A stretch of DNA of 14,864 nt from the IMG/VR virus record IMGVR_UViG_2703718837_000007; one strand, 5' to 3'. The position numbers were made by a program, and so were the translations under genes. This stretch comes from a virus. Taxonomy: Duplodnaviria > Heunggongvirae > Uroviricota > Caudoviricetes. Below, in pieces: positions 1-7,038 of the stretch; the first letter of the stretch is position 1; the number at the start of each line of letters is the position of its first letter. The notes beneath the pieces were generated by a model, which was not told the origin of the DNA, ran no database searches, and was given only the letters and a program-made list of their open reading frames with translations.

Positions 1-90
1 ATATAGGGGCAAATCCACATAATCACCAGACCATCCACGCATTGTTTTTTCTTTTGCAATATTTCCAGAACCGCATTTTGGACAAGACAT
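1..90 (-). CDS. 5'-proximal fragment (first 30 codons) of a hypothetical protein with a CPKCG zinc-ribbon-like motif; continues past the window start
   Basis: Minus-strand ATG at 90..88 with GGAGG 7 nt upstream; frame open to window edge (MSCPKCGSGNIAKEKTMRGWSGDYVDLPLY...). Absent from the ORF track because it is cut by the window. Confidence 0.3.
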   Translation of the reverse strand, partial: MSCPKCGSGNIAKEKTMRGWSGDYVDLPLY

Positions 91-186
91 ATCACTACCT
101 CCAAAGCATGAGTGAGATGACAACGTAACATTGATTGGAGATTAACAATAGATTGCTGATGTAAAAGATATGTATAAGCTTCGCTT

Positions 187-816
187 TCAAAGTGGAGGCT
201 CTGGTAGCGGCATCCAGTGAGTTACGTCATCCAAGATATATCCTGATAAATACGTGAAAGCTCTATATTTTTTGTAATCAATTGGATTTATAACCCAGTT
301 CCAATATGCGGCCACGATTTTACCTTGACTAAATGCCAGTAACATTTTGGTGTCTTCCGGCATTCGATCACTACAGCTTATCCAACCATCCGGAGTTACC
401 GGAGAGTTGCCGGGTTCTTTAATGTGCAAGCGAGGCTCACCATCTTTTGGCTCAGGCCACTGGCGCTCCATGTTGATCTTCAATTTATTTTCCATAGCAG
501 CGGTAATTTCAGCATCACTGATACCAGCACGGCGCTGTGCATCCCACAACAGGAACTGCATATCAGCCCACTCGCTGAGATCGTCAGGTTCGGCTGCGGC
601 TTCCAGTGCCTCTTTTGAGAGGTGTTTCAGTGGACCAATGGGGCCAACGCAGCCAAATGTGGAGTCAGACCATTTGGCATGCTCGTGGCGAATCTGTTCG
701 CGTTCCAGTGATGCCAGTGCAATTCGTGCCAGTTCCATTTGTTCGCCACGAGTAAGTCCGTTATCAAGCGGATTTTTAATGAATAATTTGATACGTTCTT
801 TGGTTATAGCGCTCAT
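187..816 (-). CDS. Phage Ead/Ea22-like protein with C-terminal DUF551-type domain (209 aa)
   Basis: ORF track 187..858; preferred start is the ATG at 816..814, one nt after the upstream TGA and preceded by GGAG. C-terminus ...DGWISCSDRMPED...VTHWMPLPEPPL matches the DUF551 signature as I recall it from enterobacterial prophage proteins. Confidence 0.6.
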   Translation of the reverse strand: MSAITKERIKLFIKNPLDNGLTRGEQMELARIALASLEREQIRHEHAKWSDSTFGCVGPIGPLKHLSKEALEAAAEPDDLSEWADMQFLLWDAQRRAGISDAEITAAMENKLKINMERQWPEPKDGEPRLHIKEPGNSPVTPDGWISCSDRMPEDTKMLLAFSQGKIVAAYWNWVINPIDYKKYRAFTYLSGYILDDVTHWMPLPEPPL

Positions 817-817
817 A

Positions 818-1225
818 TCACTCTCCTTTGATGCGAATGCCAGTAGCGCGGATTGCATCGATGACTTCAGAAACTTTGTATGCCATTACCGTTTGGTAAT
901 CATCGTGAAAATCTGTTCGATGAAGCATGCTGCTACGTTCCGGGAGCAGTATTTCCCGCGCTTTCAGTTCTGCAATGCGCTTTTTTGCTGCTTCCAGTTC
1001 ATCCAGTAATTCCAGCACGGTAGCCGGATTAGCCTTGGCAACAAAATCCCGGACTTGCTTACAATCAATCTCCGCAATGGGTTGATACGATGTGTAGCCA
1101 TGCTGTCTTGTATAACTACCGTGACGAATAACGAAAAAATCACCATTTATTTTTTTAGCCTGCCACTTATCTTCACCGGCTTTCTCTGCCGCTTCACGCA
1201 GTGCCTGATAGTCAATCTTGTTCAT
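818..1225 (-). CDS. Hypothetical phage early protein, possibly Ead/Ea22-like (135 aa)
   Basis: ATG at 1225..1223 lies 1 nt after the upstream TGA, with GGGTG upstream. N-terminus MNKIDYQALREAAEKAGEDKWQA resembles Ea22-like N-termini (recalled, not verified); central coiled-coil-like stretch. Confidence 0.5.
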   Translation of the reverse strand: MNKIDYQALREAAEKAGEDKWQAKKINGDFFVIRHGSYTRQHGYTSYQPIAEIDCKQVRDFVAKANPATVLELLDELEAAKKRIAELKAREILLPERSSMLHRTDFHDDYQTVMAYKVSEVIDAIRATGIRIKGE

Positions 1226-1226
1226 A

Positions 1227-1526
1227 TCACATCACCCTGAAGCCGTTGCATTTACGTAAAAAATCGCAGATATAGCCCTTCATTTTTTCGTGCCAATCTC
1301 GATCATTCCCATTGCACCAACCATCAGGTGGAGTCCAGTTTTCTATCAGAGCAGCCATTTTCTTTGCTTTCGCCGGAGTAGCTGTTGCGGTATCGCAGTA
1401 ATGACGAGTGTCAACCAACGCATCCATACCATCGATATCAAGTACGCAAAACCATGTGTGATTCGGAATTCCTACAGGTGGTATTTGTTGCCCACGTCGA
1501 CGTTTATCAATAAGATATACACTCAC
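1227..1526 (-). CDS. Hypothetical protein (99 aa), GTG start
   Basis: The track shows a 163-aa ORF (1227..1718) whose 5' part overlaps Lar in another frame. An internal GTG at 1526..1524 is preceded by AAGGAGG with a 6-nt spacer, giving VSVYLIDKRRRGQQ...CNGFRVM. No family recognised. Confidence 0.45.
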   Translation of the reverse strand: MSVYLIDKRRRGQQIPPVGIPNHTWFCVLDIDGMDALVDTRHYCDTATATPAKAKKMAALIENWTPPDGWCNGNDRDWHEKMKGYICDFLRKCNGFRVM

Positions 1527-1746
1527 TGTTTGCCTCCTTTGCTCGCTGATTCCACTCTGCTCTAACCTCTGAATAAAAAATCGCGCAGTCATTTCCAGGC
1601 GCTGCATATTTGCTACCAGATTGAGCGCGACACGTACCGCATCGAACGAAATAGAATCGACCGCCAGAGCCATATTCAGGGTGATCTGCTTCGCTGGCAA
1701 CGTGCGCTGCACCGCCACAGAATGGACATGGTAGTAGGTTGCTCAT
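1507..1746 (-). CDS. Lar-family restriction alleviation protein (79 aa)
   Basis: [12 protein letters not shown]...FVRCGTCRAQ: CPFCGG plus CxxC spacing typical of Lar-family small zinc-binding proteins. Start ATG 1746..1744 overlaps the upstream TGA as ATGA (translational coupling); the track ORF 1507..1779 carries an 11-codon N-terminal extension that I reject. Confidence 0.6.
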   Translation of the reverse strand: MSNLLPCPFCGGAAHVASEADHPEYGSGGRFYFVRCGTCRAQSGSKYAAPGNDCAIFYSEVRAEWNQRAKEANSECISY

Positions 1747-2303
1747 GAATGCACTCCCTTGTGAAGCTGTTCCGCACAATGCAGCAGGGCGTCAGTCGCC
1801 TCTTTCACCGTAACGCAGTCGCCATCGTCCAGCCCGGACACCGACGCGTGCTTAACGAACGCCGCGCAAAGGTCATCAAACGCCTTAGCCCGGACTTCAG
1901 CCAGGAAAGCATCGGTGGCTGGGGTGTCAACACGGATGCTGTCGCGCAAGATGAAAAATGCATTGAGCATTCCAGTCTCTGGCACTTCATCCTGATGCTT
2001 CTCATACGCATCAAGAGCCTTCATCATCTCATGTCCGAATGGTTGAGGGTGCGCAGCCTTCAGCCCAGCATTCTCCGCCGCCAGCACTGAAAACTTCTCG
2101 TGTGCCAACTTAACAGCCGAATCAGCCTGCTTAATTGACTCAATCGCTCTCTGTTGGTCTTCGGACAGAGCCGAAATCTTGGCCTCCGCTTCAGCAAATT
2201 TACGCACCAGATATTCAGCGTTTGTTTCGTTAACCTTTAAATCTCGTGGAATGCATTTACCTTTCAGAAATCCATCCATCTCAATTAGTGTCATTTGTTT
2301 CAT
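1743..2303 (-). CDS. Hypothetical phage early protein, coiled-coil N-terminal half (186 aa)
   Basis: ORF track 1743..2321 starts on GTG; the ATG at 2303..2301 overlaps the upstream TGA as ATGA and has GGAG/GGGAAG upstream. No family recognised with confidence. Confidence 0.5.
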
Positions 2304-2464
2304 TTCTTCCCACTCCGCCACATCGCATTCAGATATTTGTTTTGATTCACTGATGGAAAAGAATTTCTCTTAAGCAATTCCTCTCTCGATGGCATTGGCT
2401 TTACGCGTTGGCGAATAATCATTTCTGCCGGAAGAATTCCGGGATTGTATGCAAGTCCTCTCAT
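2300..2464 (-). CDS. Small hypothetical protein (54 aa)
   Basis: Track ORF 2300..2614 overlaps the upstream gene; the internal ATG at 2464..2462 has GAGGAA 7 nt upstream ([20 protein letters not shown]...). An alternative start at 2482 lacks an SD. Confidence 0.3.
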
Positions 2465-2474
2465 GGTAAATTCC

Positions 2475-2768
2475 TCAGTCATTACTGATAGCGCCATAGC
2501 GTGATCGGTAATTACGCAGGCGCGGGTCAATTTCATGGAAGTGGGTATATGTGGCTTTGCGGAATGGTCGGATTGATGTCTGGTAAATTCGCTCGCGTTC
2601 TTCTTTCTCTGCAAGCCATATACAGTGGCGAAATTCCTTTTCCTCTTTCGTTTCCTGCGGTAGAGACATTATTCGATCGTAGTTTTTTCTGAATTTATCC
2701 AGCACCTCCGATACGGAATTGCCGGAACAGCGGCGCGCGTCGTCCGCACCATACAGAGGCGCTGGCAT
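2475..2768 (-). CDS. Hypothetical protein (97 aa)
   Basis: ATG at 2768..2766 with AGGAGA 6 nt upstream, lying just downstream of the exonuclease stop. No family recognised. Confidence 0.45.
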
Positions 2769-2784
2769 GGTTTTCTCCTGTTGA

Positions 2785-3192
2785 TTATTTAGCTAACTTT
2801 TTCCAGATCGCTGAAACGTATTTGGCTTGGTGGATGGCATCATCAAGCGCGTTGTGGCGAGTTCCTTTGAATGGCATATCTCGCTTAGGATCGAATCCTA
2901 TTACCTTCCCAAGTTCGACGATTGTTCTTACGTCGCGGTCATTCCACCACTGCCACGGAACTGGCTGCCCTGTCAGCGAATAACTGTTGCGGAGAATAAC
3001 GCAGTCAAATGATGCTCCATTCCCCCAAACCTGAACGAGTTTGTGGTTGGCGTTCTTTATGATGAATTCAGATAACCATGAAAGAGCCGTTGAAAGCTCT
3101 TGAGTGTTGCTGGTTAGCGATTTTCTGGCTTCTTCACTCTGTTCCAGCCACCATAAAATCGTTGAAGCGTCAGGACGCGCCCGATATCGCAT
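2785..3192 (-). CDS. DnaQ-like (DEDDh) 3'-5' exonuclease domain protein lacking the N-terminal Exo I motif; possibly 5'-truncated (135 aa)
   Basis: Exo II-like [12 protein letters not shown] and Exo III-like [14 protein letters not shown] are present, but no DxE Exo I motif. In-frame stop 112 nt upstream of the ATG (3304..3306), no good SD, and no alternative frame upstream encodes a recognisable Exo I segment. Confidence 0.55.
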
Positions 3193-3281
3193 TGATGACT
3201 CAAGCGAGATATTTACCGAGAACTCTTCTCCTGTTTCTCCGGTATTGGTCAGGGTGTCAGATTTACCGACAGGAGGTACGA

Positions 3282-3458
3282 ATGAGACGACAGCGACGAA
3301 GTATCACCGACATCATCTGCGAAAACTGCAAATACCTTCCAACGAAACGCTCCAGAAATAAACGCAAGCCAATCCCAAAAGAATCTGACGTAAAAACCTT
3401 CAACTACACGGCTCACCTGTGGGATATCCGGTGGCTAAGACATCGTGCGAGGAAATGA
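3282..3458 (+). CDS. Candidate small, highly basic ORF (58 aa); uncertain
   Basis: ATG at 3282 preceded by AGGAGG with a 5-nt spacer; [30 protein letters not shown]... Lies in the putative deletion-junction region and overlaps the start of the gp10-like remnant frame; could be chance. Confidence 0.2.
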
Positions 3459-3696
3459 CAATGCTTTTAATTCAACCTGGATTGCGCAGTACGCCGACCG
3501 CCTGTTCCTCTCTGCAACCACTGACGGCATAAATTACGGGCGTGAGCAGATGATTGAGCAGAATGAACCGTTCGTTTACGACAAACGCGTTTTGTGGAAG
3601 CGAGTCGGGCGCATCAGGAAAAATGTCGGCTTCAAATTGCGCGTTATCACGAAGTCACCTGTCACTCTGTCTGGCGCTAAGATAAGGATTGAGTAA
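3439..3696 (+). pseudogene. Probable 3'-terminal remnant (about 85 codons) of a gp10-like tail hub / head-completion gene
   Basis: Frame opens after the TAA at 3436..3438 and ends in a TAATG overlap with the needle gene, as gene 10 precedes gene 26 in P22. Assigned by synteny only; P22 gp10 is about 470 aa, so at most the C-terminal fifth is present. The sequence itself was not recognised. Confidence 0.35.
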
Positions 3697-4544
3697 TGGC
3701 GGATTCGAATCTCAATGTGCCGGTAATCATTCAGGCTACACGGCTCGACACATCAGTCCTTCCACGCAATATCTTTTCGCAGTCGTATCTGCTTTACGTT
3801 ATCGCACAGGGTACTGATGTTGGTAACGTGGCTAACAAGGCCAACGAGGCCGGACAGGGCGCTTATGATGCACAGGTCAGGAACGATGAGCAGGATGTGA
3901 TTCTCGCTGACCATGAGCAGCGAATTTCTGCTGCGGAAGCAACGCTTGTTAATCATGAGGAGCGAATCAGCCAGGCAGAATCAACTCTTCAGGAACATGA
4001 AACGCGAATCGCTCAGAATGAAAGCGATATTGCGTCTCTTGATACCAGAGTTCAGTCGCTGGAGTCGCAGGTTTCAGACCATGAAACGCGCATCGATGCT
4101 CTTGAGTATGCCACTACTCGCAAGAAGTCAGAGGTTGTTTACTCTGGCGTATCTGTAACCATCCCGACAGCGCCGACCAACCTTGTTAGCCTGCTGAAAA
4201 CGCTCACGCCGTCATCCGGCACGTTGGCACCATTCTTCGACACCGTTAACAACAAGATGGTTGTGTTCAACGAGAACAAAACACTGCTCTTCAAGCTGTC
4301 GATTGTCGGCACGTGGCCCAGCGGAACCGCCAACAGGTCAATGCAGCTAACCTTTTCCGGCTCTGTTCCTGACACACTGGTAAGCAGCCGCAACTCGGCG
4401 ACAACAACCGATAACATCTTGTTAGCTACGTTCTTCAGCGTGGATAAAGACGGCTTTCTTGCCACAAATGGCAGCACGTTAACCATTCAGTCAAATGGGG
4501 CGGCGTTTACTGCCACAACCATCAAGATAATCGCGGAGCAGTAA
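3696..4544 (+). CDS. Tail needle (P22 gp26 family), 282 aa, with a C-terminal globular domain unlike P22's
   Basis: N-terminus [43 protein letters not shown]...[16 protein letters not shown] closely matches the recalled P22 gp26 N-terminus, followed by HExRI coiled-coil repeats. The C-terminal 140 aa or so differ from P22. Confidence 0.9.
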
Positions 4545-4999
4545 TGATTCAGTTCAAACCAACGCGAAACATCGACCTGATCGAAGCAGTCGGAAATCAC
4601 CCTGACATTATTGCCGGAAGCAACAACGGTGATGGATACGACTACAAGCCTGAATGCCGTTACTTTGAGGTTAACGTGCACGGTCAGTTTGGCGGCATTG
4701 TTTACTATCAGGAAATTCAGCCGCTTACATTCGATTGCCACGCCATGTACCTGCCAGAGGTTCGTGGATTCAGCAAGGAAATCGGACTGGAGTTCTGGCG
4801 ATACATTCTGACTAACACCACTGTTCAGTGTGTCACATCGTTCGCTGCGCGCAAATTCCGCCACGGGCAGATGTACTGCGCAATGATTGGCCTTAATCGT
4901 GTAGGAACCATCAAGAAATACTTCAAAGGCGTGGATGACGTGACATTTTACAGTGCTACACGCGAAGAACTAATCGAATTCCTGAATCACGGGAGATAG
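4544..4999 (+). CDS. gp14-like protein (P22 gene 14 position), 151 aa
   Basis: TAATG overlap with the needle gene; position between the gene-26 and gene-7 homologues. Assigned mainly by synteny. Confidence 0.55.
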   Translation: MIQFKPTRNIDLIEAVGNHPDIIAGSNNGDGYDYKPECRYFEVNVHGQFGGIVYYQEIQPLTFDCHAMYLPEVRGFSKEIGLEFWRYILTNTTVQCVTSFAARKFRHGQMYCAMIGLNRVGTIKKYFKGVDDVTFYSATREELIEFLNHGR

Positions 5000-5001
5000 C
5001 C

Positions 5002-5697
5002 ATGTTATATGTATTTAAGCTGGGCAGAAAACTGCGCGGCGAGGAACCTTATTGCCCTGAAAAAGGCGGGAAAGGTGGCAGTTCTGATAAAAGCGCAAAG
5101 TATGCCGCAGAAGCTCAGAAGTATGCAGCAGACCTGCAAAATCAGCAGTGGCAGACGATCATGAAAAACCTTGCTCCGTTCACGCCGCTTGCGGAGCAGT
5201 ATGTTAACCAGCTTCAGAACCTTTCCAGTTTAGAAGGTCAGGGGCAGGCACTTAATCAGTATTACAACTCTCAGCAGTATAAAGACCTTGCAGGTCAGGC
5301 TCGTTACCAGAGTCTTGCTGCTGCGGAGGCGACGGGTGGACTTGGTTCGACAGCCACAAGCAATCAACTGGCTACGATCGCGCCGACACTCGGTCAGTCT
5401 TGGTTATCAAATCAGATGAGCAATTACAACAATCTGGCAAACGTTGGGCTTGGTGCGCTGCAAGGTCAGGCAAACGCCGGGCAGACGTACGCCAACAACA
5501 TGAGCAGCATTGCACAGCAAAGCGCAGCACTTGCCGCTGCTAACGCCAATAAACCATCAGGCCTTCAGACAGCAATTAGCGGCGGAGCTTCAGGGGCTAT
5601 GACTGGCGCTGCTCTTGGCTCTATTGTTCCCGGACTTGGCACTGGATTAGGTGCGGCAATTGGCGGCGGACTTGGCCTGCTTGGATCGTTGTTTTAA
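5002..5697 (+). CDS. Ejection (E) protein, P22 gp7 family, 231 aa
   Basis: N-terminus MLYVFKLGRKLRGEEPYCPEKGGKGG resembles recalled gp7; Gly/Ala-rich C-terminus; GGGAGA SD; length close to P22 gp7 (229 aa); correct synteny. Confidence 0.75.
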   Translation: MLYVFKLGRKLRGEEPYCPEKGGKGGSSDKSAKYAAEAQKYAADLQNQQWQTIMKNLAPFTPLAEQYVNQLQNLSSLEGQGQALNQYYNSQQYKDLAGQARYQSLAAAEATGGLGSTATSNQLATIAPTLGQSWLSNQMSNYNNLANVGLGALQGQANAGQTYANNMSSIAQQSAALAAANANKPSGLQTAISGGASGAMTGAALGSIVPGLGTGLGAAIGGGLGLLGSLF

Positions 5698-5706
5698 GGG
5701 GTAATC

Positions 5707-7038
5707 ATGGCTACTTGGCAGGGAACAAATGGCGGATTGTTGGCTGGTATCGGTGGTATCAACTCAAACGCTCCGAGCGTAAATGACATCGGCAACACGC
5801 TTCAGCTTATCAGGCAGAACAATGATATTGAGCGTTCAGGCGCTAACAATGTTGGGCTGACAGCTTTGCAAGGTCTTTCTGGTATTGCGGGGGTGTTTCA
5901 GCAGGAAAAGCAGGCTCAGCGGCAGAAAGAATTTCAGCAGGCGTACGCTAATGCTTATGCGTCTGGTGATCGCGGTGCTTTGCGTCAGTTGGCTACTCAA
6001 TATCCAGACCAGATTGAATCCGTTCGTAAAGGCATGGGATTCATTGATGAAGAGCAGCGTAATTCTATCGGCACCTTAGCTGCTGGCGCACGCCTTGCGT
6101 CATCGTCTCCAGAAGCAATGCAATCATGGCTGCAAAACAACGCCGGTGAGTTAGCTCGTGTTGGCGTTAATCCTCATGACGTCGCTCAGATGTACCAACA
6201 GAACCCGCGGCAGTTCGGCGAATTTGTCGATCACCTGGGGATGAACAGTCTCGGGCCCGAAAAATACTTTGACCTACAGGATAAAATGCAGGGTCGCCAG
6301 GTTACCATGCGCGGTCAGGATCTGGATTCGCAAACCGCCGCTCGGAATCAGGCAATCACAATGCGCGGACAAGATATCCAGGCGAATTTAGGTCAGCAGC
6401 GCATTAATCTGGACGCAGAAACAAACCGCATTAACAACGAAAATAAGCGCCTTGACCGGATGCTATCAGCAGAAACTAACGACCTGAAGCGCCAGGAAAT
6501 ACAGAGCCGCATAGCAGCCAACAACCAGCAGTTGCAGCAGAAGCAGCAAGCGCTAAATGATGGCTACAAAGACGGCATCAACACCCTCACAACCAGCATG
6601 TTCACTCTGAACGATATCGTTAGCTCTCCTTCACTTAAGAGCATTACAGGCTTACGTGGAGTAATCCCCAACGTTCCAGGCTCACAGGCTGCAGACACTC
6701 AGGCACGACTTGATACCTTTAAATCACAAGCATACCTGACAGCGGTTCAGGCCATGCGAGGCATGGGCGCACTTTCTGATGCCGAGGGCAAAAAGCTCGA
6801 CCAGGCTGTTGGTTCGCTGCAGAACTCGCAGAGCGAGGAGTCCTTTCGTCGCAACGCTGGCGTCATCCTGAACACGCTCAACCAGAAGCGTAATGAGGCG
6901 GTTGGTAAGTACGTTCAGCAAAACGGTATCAAGCGAGTGGAAGCGCCTCAGGCTTCTATAGATTACCTGAAGCAGCCCCCCGAGCTGTCAATCGACTTCA
7001 TTAATCGCTACGGATATCTTCCATCTTTGGGGCAGTAA
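5707..7038 (+). CDS. Ejection (E) protein, gp20-like, 443 aa
   Basis: AAGGGG SD; follows the gp7-like gene and precedes the gp16-like gene with a TAAATG junction; Q/N-rich coiled-coil-like sequence with repeated TMRGQD motif. Assigned by synteny and size. Confidence 0.65.
   Translation: MATWQGTNGGLLAGIGGINSNAPSVNDIGNTLQLIRQNNDIERSGANNVGLTALQGLSGIAGVFQQEKQAQRQKEFQQAYANAYASGDRGALRQLATQYPDQIESVRKGMGFIDEEQRNSIGTLAAGARLASSSPEAMQSWLQNNAGELARVGVNPHDVAQMYQQNPRQFGEFVDHLGMNSLGPEKYFDLQDKMQGRQVTMRGQDLDSQTAARNQAITMRGQDIQANLGQQRINLDAETNRINNENKRLDRMLSAETNDLKRQEIQSRIAANNQQLQQKQQALNDGYKDGINTLTTSMFTLNDIVSSPSLKSITGLRGVIPNVPGSQAADTQARLDTFKSQAYLTAVQAMRGMGALSDAEGKKLDQAVGSLQNSQSEESFRRNAGVILNTLNQKRNEAVGKYVQQNGIKRVEAPQASIDYLKQPPELSIDFINRYGYLPSLGQ

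Follow-up and report, generated by a model that had tools for sequence, protein, structure and literature searches.

Early-left accessory genes of P22-like type in a probable cryptic prophage: a severed block with abc2, a Lar-family gene, and an Oad2 homologue

Temperate phages related to P22 carry an accessory "ea" region in the left early arm of their genomes, known as eaA to eaI in P22, hkaD to hkaJ in HK620, genes 22 to 24 in Sf6, and EaA, EaD, and EaE in HF4s. In an intact phage, the ea genes are flanked by the recombination module (erf/ssb, abc) on one side and xis/int on the other. Their transcription starts at the leftward early promoter, PL, with antitermination by N, only minutes after infection or induction, and their tight spacing lets ribosomes move on directly from one gene to the next. 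Here we analyze a gene block of this kind, at positions 187 to 3192 on the minus strand of the window, by which we mean the whole stretch of 14,864 nucleotides (nt) from the IMG/VR virus record IMGVR_UViG_2703718837_000007 (Caudoviricetes). Very probably, the block is what a cryptic prophage has preserved of the distal accessory part of the PL operon of a temperate, P22-like (Lederbergvirus-type) phage.

Several described systems bear on such a block. Lar of the Rac prophage, from work of King and Murray in 1995, is reportedly the prototype for restriction alleviation. The exo-xis genes of lambda and Shiga toxin (Stx) phages, including Ea22 with its Ead_Ea22 signature, bias development toward lysogeny and influence both replication and the cell cycle of the host, and lambda Ea22 itself is pro-lysogenic (PMC10834534). 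The OLD protein of P2 is an abortive tRNase that is triggered upon RecBCD inhibition, and HK446 gp27, named Oad2, binds OLD, blocks its activation, and rescues OLD toxicity; the authors describe Oad2 as "related to P22 EaE" and the recombination-linked hotspot that holds it as a reservoir of anti-immunity genes (bioRxiv 10.64898/2026.07.10.737580, a July 2026 preprint). The region is a long-known counter-defense hotspot, its anti-defense role is already published, and its genes are already present in named phages. A sequence-only reading of the window had arrived at a related picture, namely a single coupled early operon around a Lar-type gene, whose unfamiliar members were put forward as uncharacterized candidates for host takeover or anti-defense.

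The gene block and its relatives

Eight consecutive minus-strand open reading frames (ORFs) fill positions 187 to 3192, as had been proposed, and conserved homologues exist for all of them; a ninth begins at 90 and leaves the window. Read along the minus strand, the block starts with a 5'-truncated 3'-5' exonuclease gene of the Rv2179c-like/DnaQ fold (ORF 2785 to 3192, 135 amino acids [aa], with homology extending to about 3246 to 3251). It continues with genes for the 97-aa Abc2 (2475 to 2768), a 54-aa basic DUF2737 protein (2300 to 2464), a 186-aa protein of the EaE/HK97 gp37/HK620 hkaH family (1743 to 2303), a 79-aa Lar-family zinc ribbon (1507 to 1746), a 99-aa DUF7739 protein of the Sf6 gene 22 family (1227 to 1526), a 135-aa Ead/Ea22-like protein (818 to 1225), and a 209-aa EaA-like protein (187 to 816).

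The packing of the block is operon-like. Measured from the stop of one ORF to the start of the next, four of the seven junctions are of the ATGA or TGA-N1-ATG type that the sequence-only reading had claimed throughout: the DUF2737 gene to the 186-aa gene and the 186-aa gene to the Lar gene (both -4 nt, ATGA), and the 99-aa gene to the 135-aa gene and the 135-aa gene to the 209-aa gene (both +1 nt, TGAtATG). The other three are short gaps of 16 nt, between the exonuclease remnant and abc2, and of 10 nt, between abc2 and the DUF2737 gene, and a 20-nt overlap of the Lar and DUF7739 genes. The GTG start of the latter, at 1526, lies behind AAGGAGG and is the same coding sequence start as in the annotation of Escherichia coli E189.

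Size alone (54 to 99 aa) might raise the thought that the small ORFs are chance reading frames. We give this a negligible probability, since all of them fall in curated Pfam or PHROG families with E values from 1e-19 to 1e-63, conservation across enterobacterial phages and prophages already refutes it, and the fold prediction for DUF7739 is confident. The block's families are conserved across phages and prophages of Escherichia, Salmonella, Shigella, Serratia, and Plesiomonas.

The best match to the block is an intact prophage of E. coli E189, with 98.9% identity over window positions 811 to 3251 (64% of window 1 to 3800). There the order runs from integrase, an excisionase-like gene, and small ORFs through Ead/Ea22, DUF7739, Lar, the 186-aa gene, DUF2737, the anti-RecBCD gene, and a 182-aa exonuclease gene. 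Beyond the exonuclease follow ssb, a Rad52-like annealing protein gene, kil, a superinfection-exclusion (sieB-like) gene, and ral, then the repressor (cI) and cro. The layout in HK620 (hkaD to hkaJ) and HK446 (gp27 to gp30) is as in E189, and the families are also annotated in HF4s. Parts of the block are matched by 3,203 of 5,426 complete E. coli genomes and by 590 phage records, typically at 95 to 99% identity and in pieces; no complete E. coli genome carries at least 80% of the query in one place. This piecewise matching is the pattern expected of a mosaic hotspot.

Gene calls on other contigs fuse DUF7739 with DUF2737, DUF7739 with Abc2, or DUF2737 with the EaE family (P0124, P0126, P0127, P0138, and P0062), which suggests either alternative module orders in the hotspot or read-through calls. 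A 30-nt direct repeat (364 to 393 and 1299 to 1328, 70% identity) encodes a P-D-G-W motif in both copies, one at the start of the DUF551 domain of the 209-aa protein and the other inside DUF7739. The resemblance may be accidental, or the repeat may serve as a recombination linker between modules of the mosaic. No structural repeats came out of the repeat search, and an Rfam search of the whole window matched no RNA family.

Deletion joints, IS2, and probable loss of early expression

The upstream end of the block is cut. The exonuclease match covers only positions 47 to 177 of the 177-position profile PF16473, and the window protein begins at residue 30 of the intact 182-aa homologue. Of the three Exo motifs, it retains Exo II (WGNGASFD) and Exo III (HNALDD); Exo I (D7-L-E9 in the intact homologue) was lost with the rest of the first 29 residues. 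We read the gene as a remnant and not as a functional DnaQ-like member, in agreement with the label of exonuclease remnant that it had been given before.

Homology to the ea region ends at 3246 to 3251. Positions 3243 to 3483, on the plus strand, are 99.2% identical to the ninB-ninE region of HK629 and HK630 and hold a complete ninE (3282 to 3458; PF05322, E 7e-44) on the strand opposite to the block, as an island of about 240 bp between the truncated exonuclease gene and a gp10 fragment. Homology to the 3' end of P22 gene 10 starts at 3471/3472, and the fragment, also on the plus strand (3472 to 3696), covers the last ~75 codons (PF11134, profile positions 395 to 469 of 469). The parental homologies overlap by 9 nt at the 3243 to 3251 joint and by 12 nt at the 3472 to 3483 joint, which fits two illegitimate deletions at microhomologies. 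The first would have removed the exonuclease 5' end through ninB, and the second a stretch that begins shortly after ninE and runs up to the last 75 codons of gp10. A search for the exact exo'/ninE joint in one genome per species gave no match.

Inverted ninE and the 3' fragment of gp10 stand upstream of the block in place of PL, nutL, N, and the proximal genes. Neither PL nor N, ral, sieB, kil, erf, or ssb is found upstream of the block in the window, and the window holds no immunity region or repressor and no replication, lysis, terminase, portal, or coat/head genes. A consensus scan of both strands of 1 to 3800 found 0 sigma-70-like promoter sites, where 4.9 were expected by chance, a result that points weakly to lost expression. 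In the same interval there is a single terminator-like hairpin (3569 to 3587, minus strand), inside the gp10 fragment.

The downstream end is interrupted as well. Positions 1 to 17 belong to the end of an IS2 element; their reverse complement equals the IS2 end TGGATTTGCCCCTATAT. In 3,070 E. coli genomes, the 43-nt IS2 end that begins with this sequence is matched at 100% under the annotation "IS3-like element IS2 family transposase." Five other loci (L002 to L006) match the window from position 16 onward and differ before it, and window 16 to 219 is 100% identical to HK620. The insertion cuts the ninth gene, whose 5' part lies at 1 to 90 on the minus strand. It encodes an EaG-like CxxC zinc ribbon (HK620 hkaD, annotated there as "Eag protein"), which is 59 aa long in uninterrupted copies and has a weak match to PF14354.

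An exact-protein look-up found the same remnant in many assemblies (98 index blocks). Five copies (L002 and L004 to L007, e.g., contig CATQZF010000006 of GCA_958307015.1) are 99.9 to 100% identical, and four loci show 0 differences from the window over 16 to 3800. The zero-difference loci continue into the 59-aa zinc-ribbon gene, a lambda-type integrase gene, and genes for a pectinesterase, an aconitase-family protein, and a Na/sulfate-symporter-family protein. This neighborhood presumably resembles that of ybhC beside the lambda attachment site. One copy, L005, is otherwise identical and carries a 14-bp frameshifting deletion at window 1972 to 1985, in the 186-aa gene. Because the copies are near-identical, their prevalence reflects clonality and is uninformative on selection.

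A different P22-like remnant (L003:9880-10010, Logan ERR119421) lies beside sucrose-utilization-type genes and has an independent deletion. Its exonuclease-side breakpoint is 7 bp from that of the window (between …GGTATTCGGGTCA and CGCCGC…) and is joined to gp7. A deletion hotspot, possibly at GGTCA, was considered from the two breakpoints and set aside, since this locus had been found through an identical 135-aa ORF, which limits breakpoints to ~140 nt.

These features can be set against the alternative that the block is still a working module, kept for its benefit to the host or to recombining superinfecting relatives and expressed from an unrecognized promoter or by read-through. Seven uninterrupted ORFs with good ribosome-binding sites and the occurrence of the remnant in so many assemblies speak for it, and cryptic prophages are reservoirs for recombination with incoming lambdoid phages. 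Nevertheless, we regard this alternative as improbable. The deletions took PL, nutL, and N, the scan of 1 to 3800 gave no promoter-like site, and the DNA upstream is made up of late-gene fragments that point the other way. The absence of differences among four loci makes the prevalence a matter of clonality and not of selection, one copy is frameshifted in its 186-aa gene, and the window copy has IS2 in its ninth gene. Constitutive Abc2 would, moreover, perturb host RecBCD.

We therefore keep to the reading of a preserved but severed accessory block. After two microhomology deletions and an IS2 insertion in its ninth gene, the block would be a fossil whose genes are probably no longer expressed as an early operon; the IS2 end at 1 to 17 and the 14-bp deletion in one copy are signs of such decay. 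The earlier proposal of an early accessory anti-defense cluster holds insofar as this is a lambdoid, P22-like early-left segment with Abc2, a Lar-family ribbon, and an Oad2 homologue, and fails in that it is not a working early operon here. Two points weigh on the other side. All but one of the eight ORFs are intact, and several assemblies carry the remnant without differences; a recent clonal origin gives this pattern, yet the block may still see some use. In addition, the promoter scan is a crude consensus test that leaves room for weak or read-through transcription.

Proposed counter-defense functions and other roles of the proteins

The 97-, 54-, 186-, and 99-aa proteins had been described as matching no recognizable family, and this did not stand up. 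They belong to Abc2 (PF11043), DUF2737 (PF10930), EaE/HK97 gp37 (PHROG 614), and DUF7739 (PF24881), respectively. The "unknowns" are catalogued families, two with characterized members: a structure has been solved for one, and a relative of another was tested recently. As candidates they are therefore not new. The families matched are not housekeeping functions, however, and the genes are widely conserved.

The 97-aa protein matches PF11043 over its full length (210.4 bits against a cut-off of 25; E 3.2e-63, profile 1 to 97 of 97). Its residues 1 to 97 align to the P22 Abc2 chain of Protein Data Bank (PDB) entries 8B1T and 8B1U with an E value of 2.7e-57. Proline 68 of Abc2, which enters the active site of host PpiB (PMC9836394), is conserved in the window protein (...TSIRP68F...). 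By these matches, the protein is assigned as Abc2, the anti-RecBCD protein 2 of P22. The erf/ssb recombination module that neighbors abc2 in relatives is deleted in the window.

The 186-aa protein has no Pfam family and matches PHROG 614 with an E value of 5e-54. Its identity to the HF4s "EaE protein" is 99.5%, and it is homologous over its full length to HK446 gp27 (Oad2), with 43% identity (E 4e-38). The family comprises more than 8,000 clusters, with a mosaic middle and an invariant 13-residue motif. In an alignment of 34 homologues, the ends are conserved and the middle is freely exchanged, and the family recombines with Ead/Ea22 modules. A PDB sequence search with the 186-aa profile gave no match.

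With moderate confidence only, we propose from this homology that the 186-aa protein is an Oad2-type inhibitor of an OLD-family nuclease, complementing Abc2. Most likely, the protein would bind an OLD-type ABC-ATPase/TOPRIM nuclease that fires upon RecBCD inhibition and would block its activation, covering the liability created by Abc2-type manipulation of RecBCD. The allele that it targets is probably one other than P2 OLD.

The 79-aa protein had been called Lar-type, which its Pfam match supports. It scores 38.4 bits against PF14354, above the cut-off of 28.6, and is assigned to PHROG 599. Its four-cysteine zinc ribbon is formed by C7-P-F-C10 and C36-G-T-C39 (CPFC...CGTC), and the assignment to Lar is based on the Pfam match and these four cysteines. 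By analogy with the Rac prototype, this divergent member of the family would relieve type I restriction.

Three findings temper these functional assignments. First, the HK75 homologue of Oad2, 54% identical, fails to inhibit P2 OLD (bioRxiv 10.64898/2026.07.10.737580). Since this homologue is inactive there and the link to Oad2 is one of 43% identity, activity of the window protein against OLD cannot be assumed, which is why our confidence in an Oad2-type role is only moderate. Second, AlphaFold renders the 186-aa protein as entirely helical, a long helix spanning 26 to 84, but with a low confidence score (pLDDT 66.8); this model adds little and was too poor to justify a fold search. Third, an NCBIfam scan of the block returned nothing except a sub-threshold Lar match, the 79-aa protein scoring 29.7 bits against TIGR03655, below the cut-off of 39.6.

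The DUF2737 protein (HK97 gp38/HK620 hkaI/Sf6 gp23; PF10930, E 2.6e-31) is basic, with a pI of 11.0, and its gene is always translationally coupled to the EaE-family gene, here through ATGA. The 99-aa DUF7739 protein (PF24881, E 4e-19) is 99% identical to the gene 22 protein of Sf6 and 98% identical to the HK75 copy. It is predicted with confidence to adopt a small alpha/beta fold, and the model most resembles small protein-binding inhibitors, namely DMP12 and a CdiI immunity protein. A search of the BFVD viral fold database with DUF7739 gave no informative match.

The 135-aa protein carries the Ead/Ea22 signature (PF13935, E 8.7e-18; PHROG 1667) and is annotated accordingly in E189. The 209-aa EaA-like protein combines an N-terminal PF04447 domain (formerly DUF550, MazZ-like; 143 bits, E 3.6e-42, profile 1 to 96 of 97) with a C-terminal DUF551 domain (PF04448, E 4.3e-21). 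DUF550 proteins of Z-genome phages hydrolyze dATP and dGTP to dNMP and pyrophosphate (PMC12884076), and the N-terminal domain is placed in the dATP/dGTP pyrophosphohydrolase family, with a putative activity of this kind. PDB sequence searches gave no match for the DUF7739 profile or for the 209-, 135-, 79-, and 54-aa proteins.

Tentatively, one or more of the small proteins may be an undescribed counter-defense factor, the best candidate being DUF7739 and the other DUF2737. As part of the same suggestion, the divergent EaE variant may inhibit a member of the OLD/ABC-ATPase-TOPRIM group (an OLD allele, Gabija, or PARIS) other than P2 OLD. If it has such a target, the mosaic middle of the family would be a specificity cassette. 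PADLOC defense-system profiles run against the block proteins gave a sole match, of coiled-coil type, to JetC (E 0.0047), and looking for the block's families or sequences in the supplementary material of Silas et al. brought up spurious matches only.

A further possibility, which we hold to be short of likely, is that DUF2737, DUF7739, the Ead/Ea22-like protein, and perhaps the EaE-family protein modulate the choice between lysis and lysogeny, or host physiology, and do not act in anti-defense. The bias toward lysogeny exerted by lambda and Stx exo-xis genes, Ea22 included, fits this view (PMC10834534), as do the PF13935 domain of the 135-aa protein and the recombination of the 186-aa family with Ead/Ea22 modules. 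A direct homologue of the 186-aa protein has nonetheless been shown biochemically to bind and inhibit OLD, and the two roles are not exclusive.

The retained right arm and comparison with described systems

After the gp10 fragment, the order is tail needle, gp14, ejection gp7, gp20, gp16, mnt, tailspike, and gtrCBA. This right arm (3696 to 14864) is intact, with a tail-needle knob protein of 282 aa (Sf6 type), a tailspike of 723 aa, and gtrC-gtrB-gtrA for O-antigen glucosylation. The G+C content of the gtr segment is markedly low (0.32 to 0.36 over 12001 to 14000). Retention of the serotype-converting gtr genes may explain the survival of the right arm.

As a discovery the block carries little weight, given 99.5% identity to HF4s EaE, 99% to Sf6 gp22, and an end-to-end match to P22 Abc2. 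Its value is rather that of a pointer to DUF2737 and DUF7739, which in thousands of enterobacterial prophages are neighbors of Abc2, a Lar-like protein, and an Oad2 homologue. The mosaic EaE family, in turn, is a natural variant series for mapping the specificity of OLD-family inhibition. The window also illustrates prophage decay neatly: it shows two microhomology deletions and one IS2 insertion, and the gtr, tailspike, and ejection genes were kept.

Compared with Rac Lar, the window protein is likewise a small four-cysteine zinc ribbon encoded among the early-left accessory genes of a lambdoid prophage, but it scores under the NCBIfam subfamily cut-off. The exo-xis region of lambda and Stx phages (orf61, orf63, orf60a, orf73, and ea22) occupies the same place in the PL operon and shares the mosaic behavior and the Ead_Ea22 signature. 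Its other genes differ, and the phenotypes published for it concern the lysis-lysogeny choice, not defense.

The 186-aa protein and HK446 gp27 are nearly identical in their first 32 residues and have the 13-residue motif and a QLRKG tail in common, and both genes lie directly downstream of DUF2737 and near abc2. Their central and C-terminal segments diverge, and the closer HK75 homologue is reported not to inhibit P2 OLD. Abc2 of the window and that of P22 are both 97 aa long and align end to end with few substitutions. In contrast to P22, the window copy has no erf or abc1/arf nearby, both being deleted, which reflects decay of the locus and not the identity of the protein.

The closest counterpart of the block as a whole is the ea region of P22, HK620, Sf6, and HF4s. 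The two share gene families, gene order, and orientation over the stretch from abc2 to xis/int, and the nucleotide sequence is 96 to 99% identical to that of segments in HF4s, HK620, N7, and many prophages of E. coli. The window copy differs in being severed from its operon, with the exonuclease gene truncated, erf/ssb, kil, ral, N, and PL absent, and IS2 inserted, and its combination of modules is one of many mosaics.

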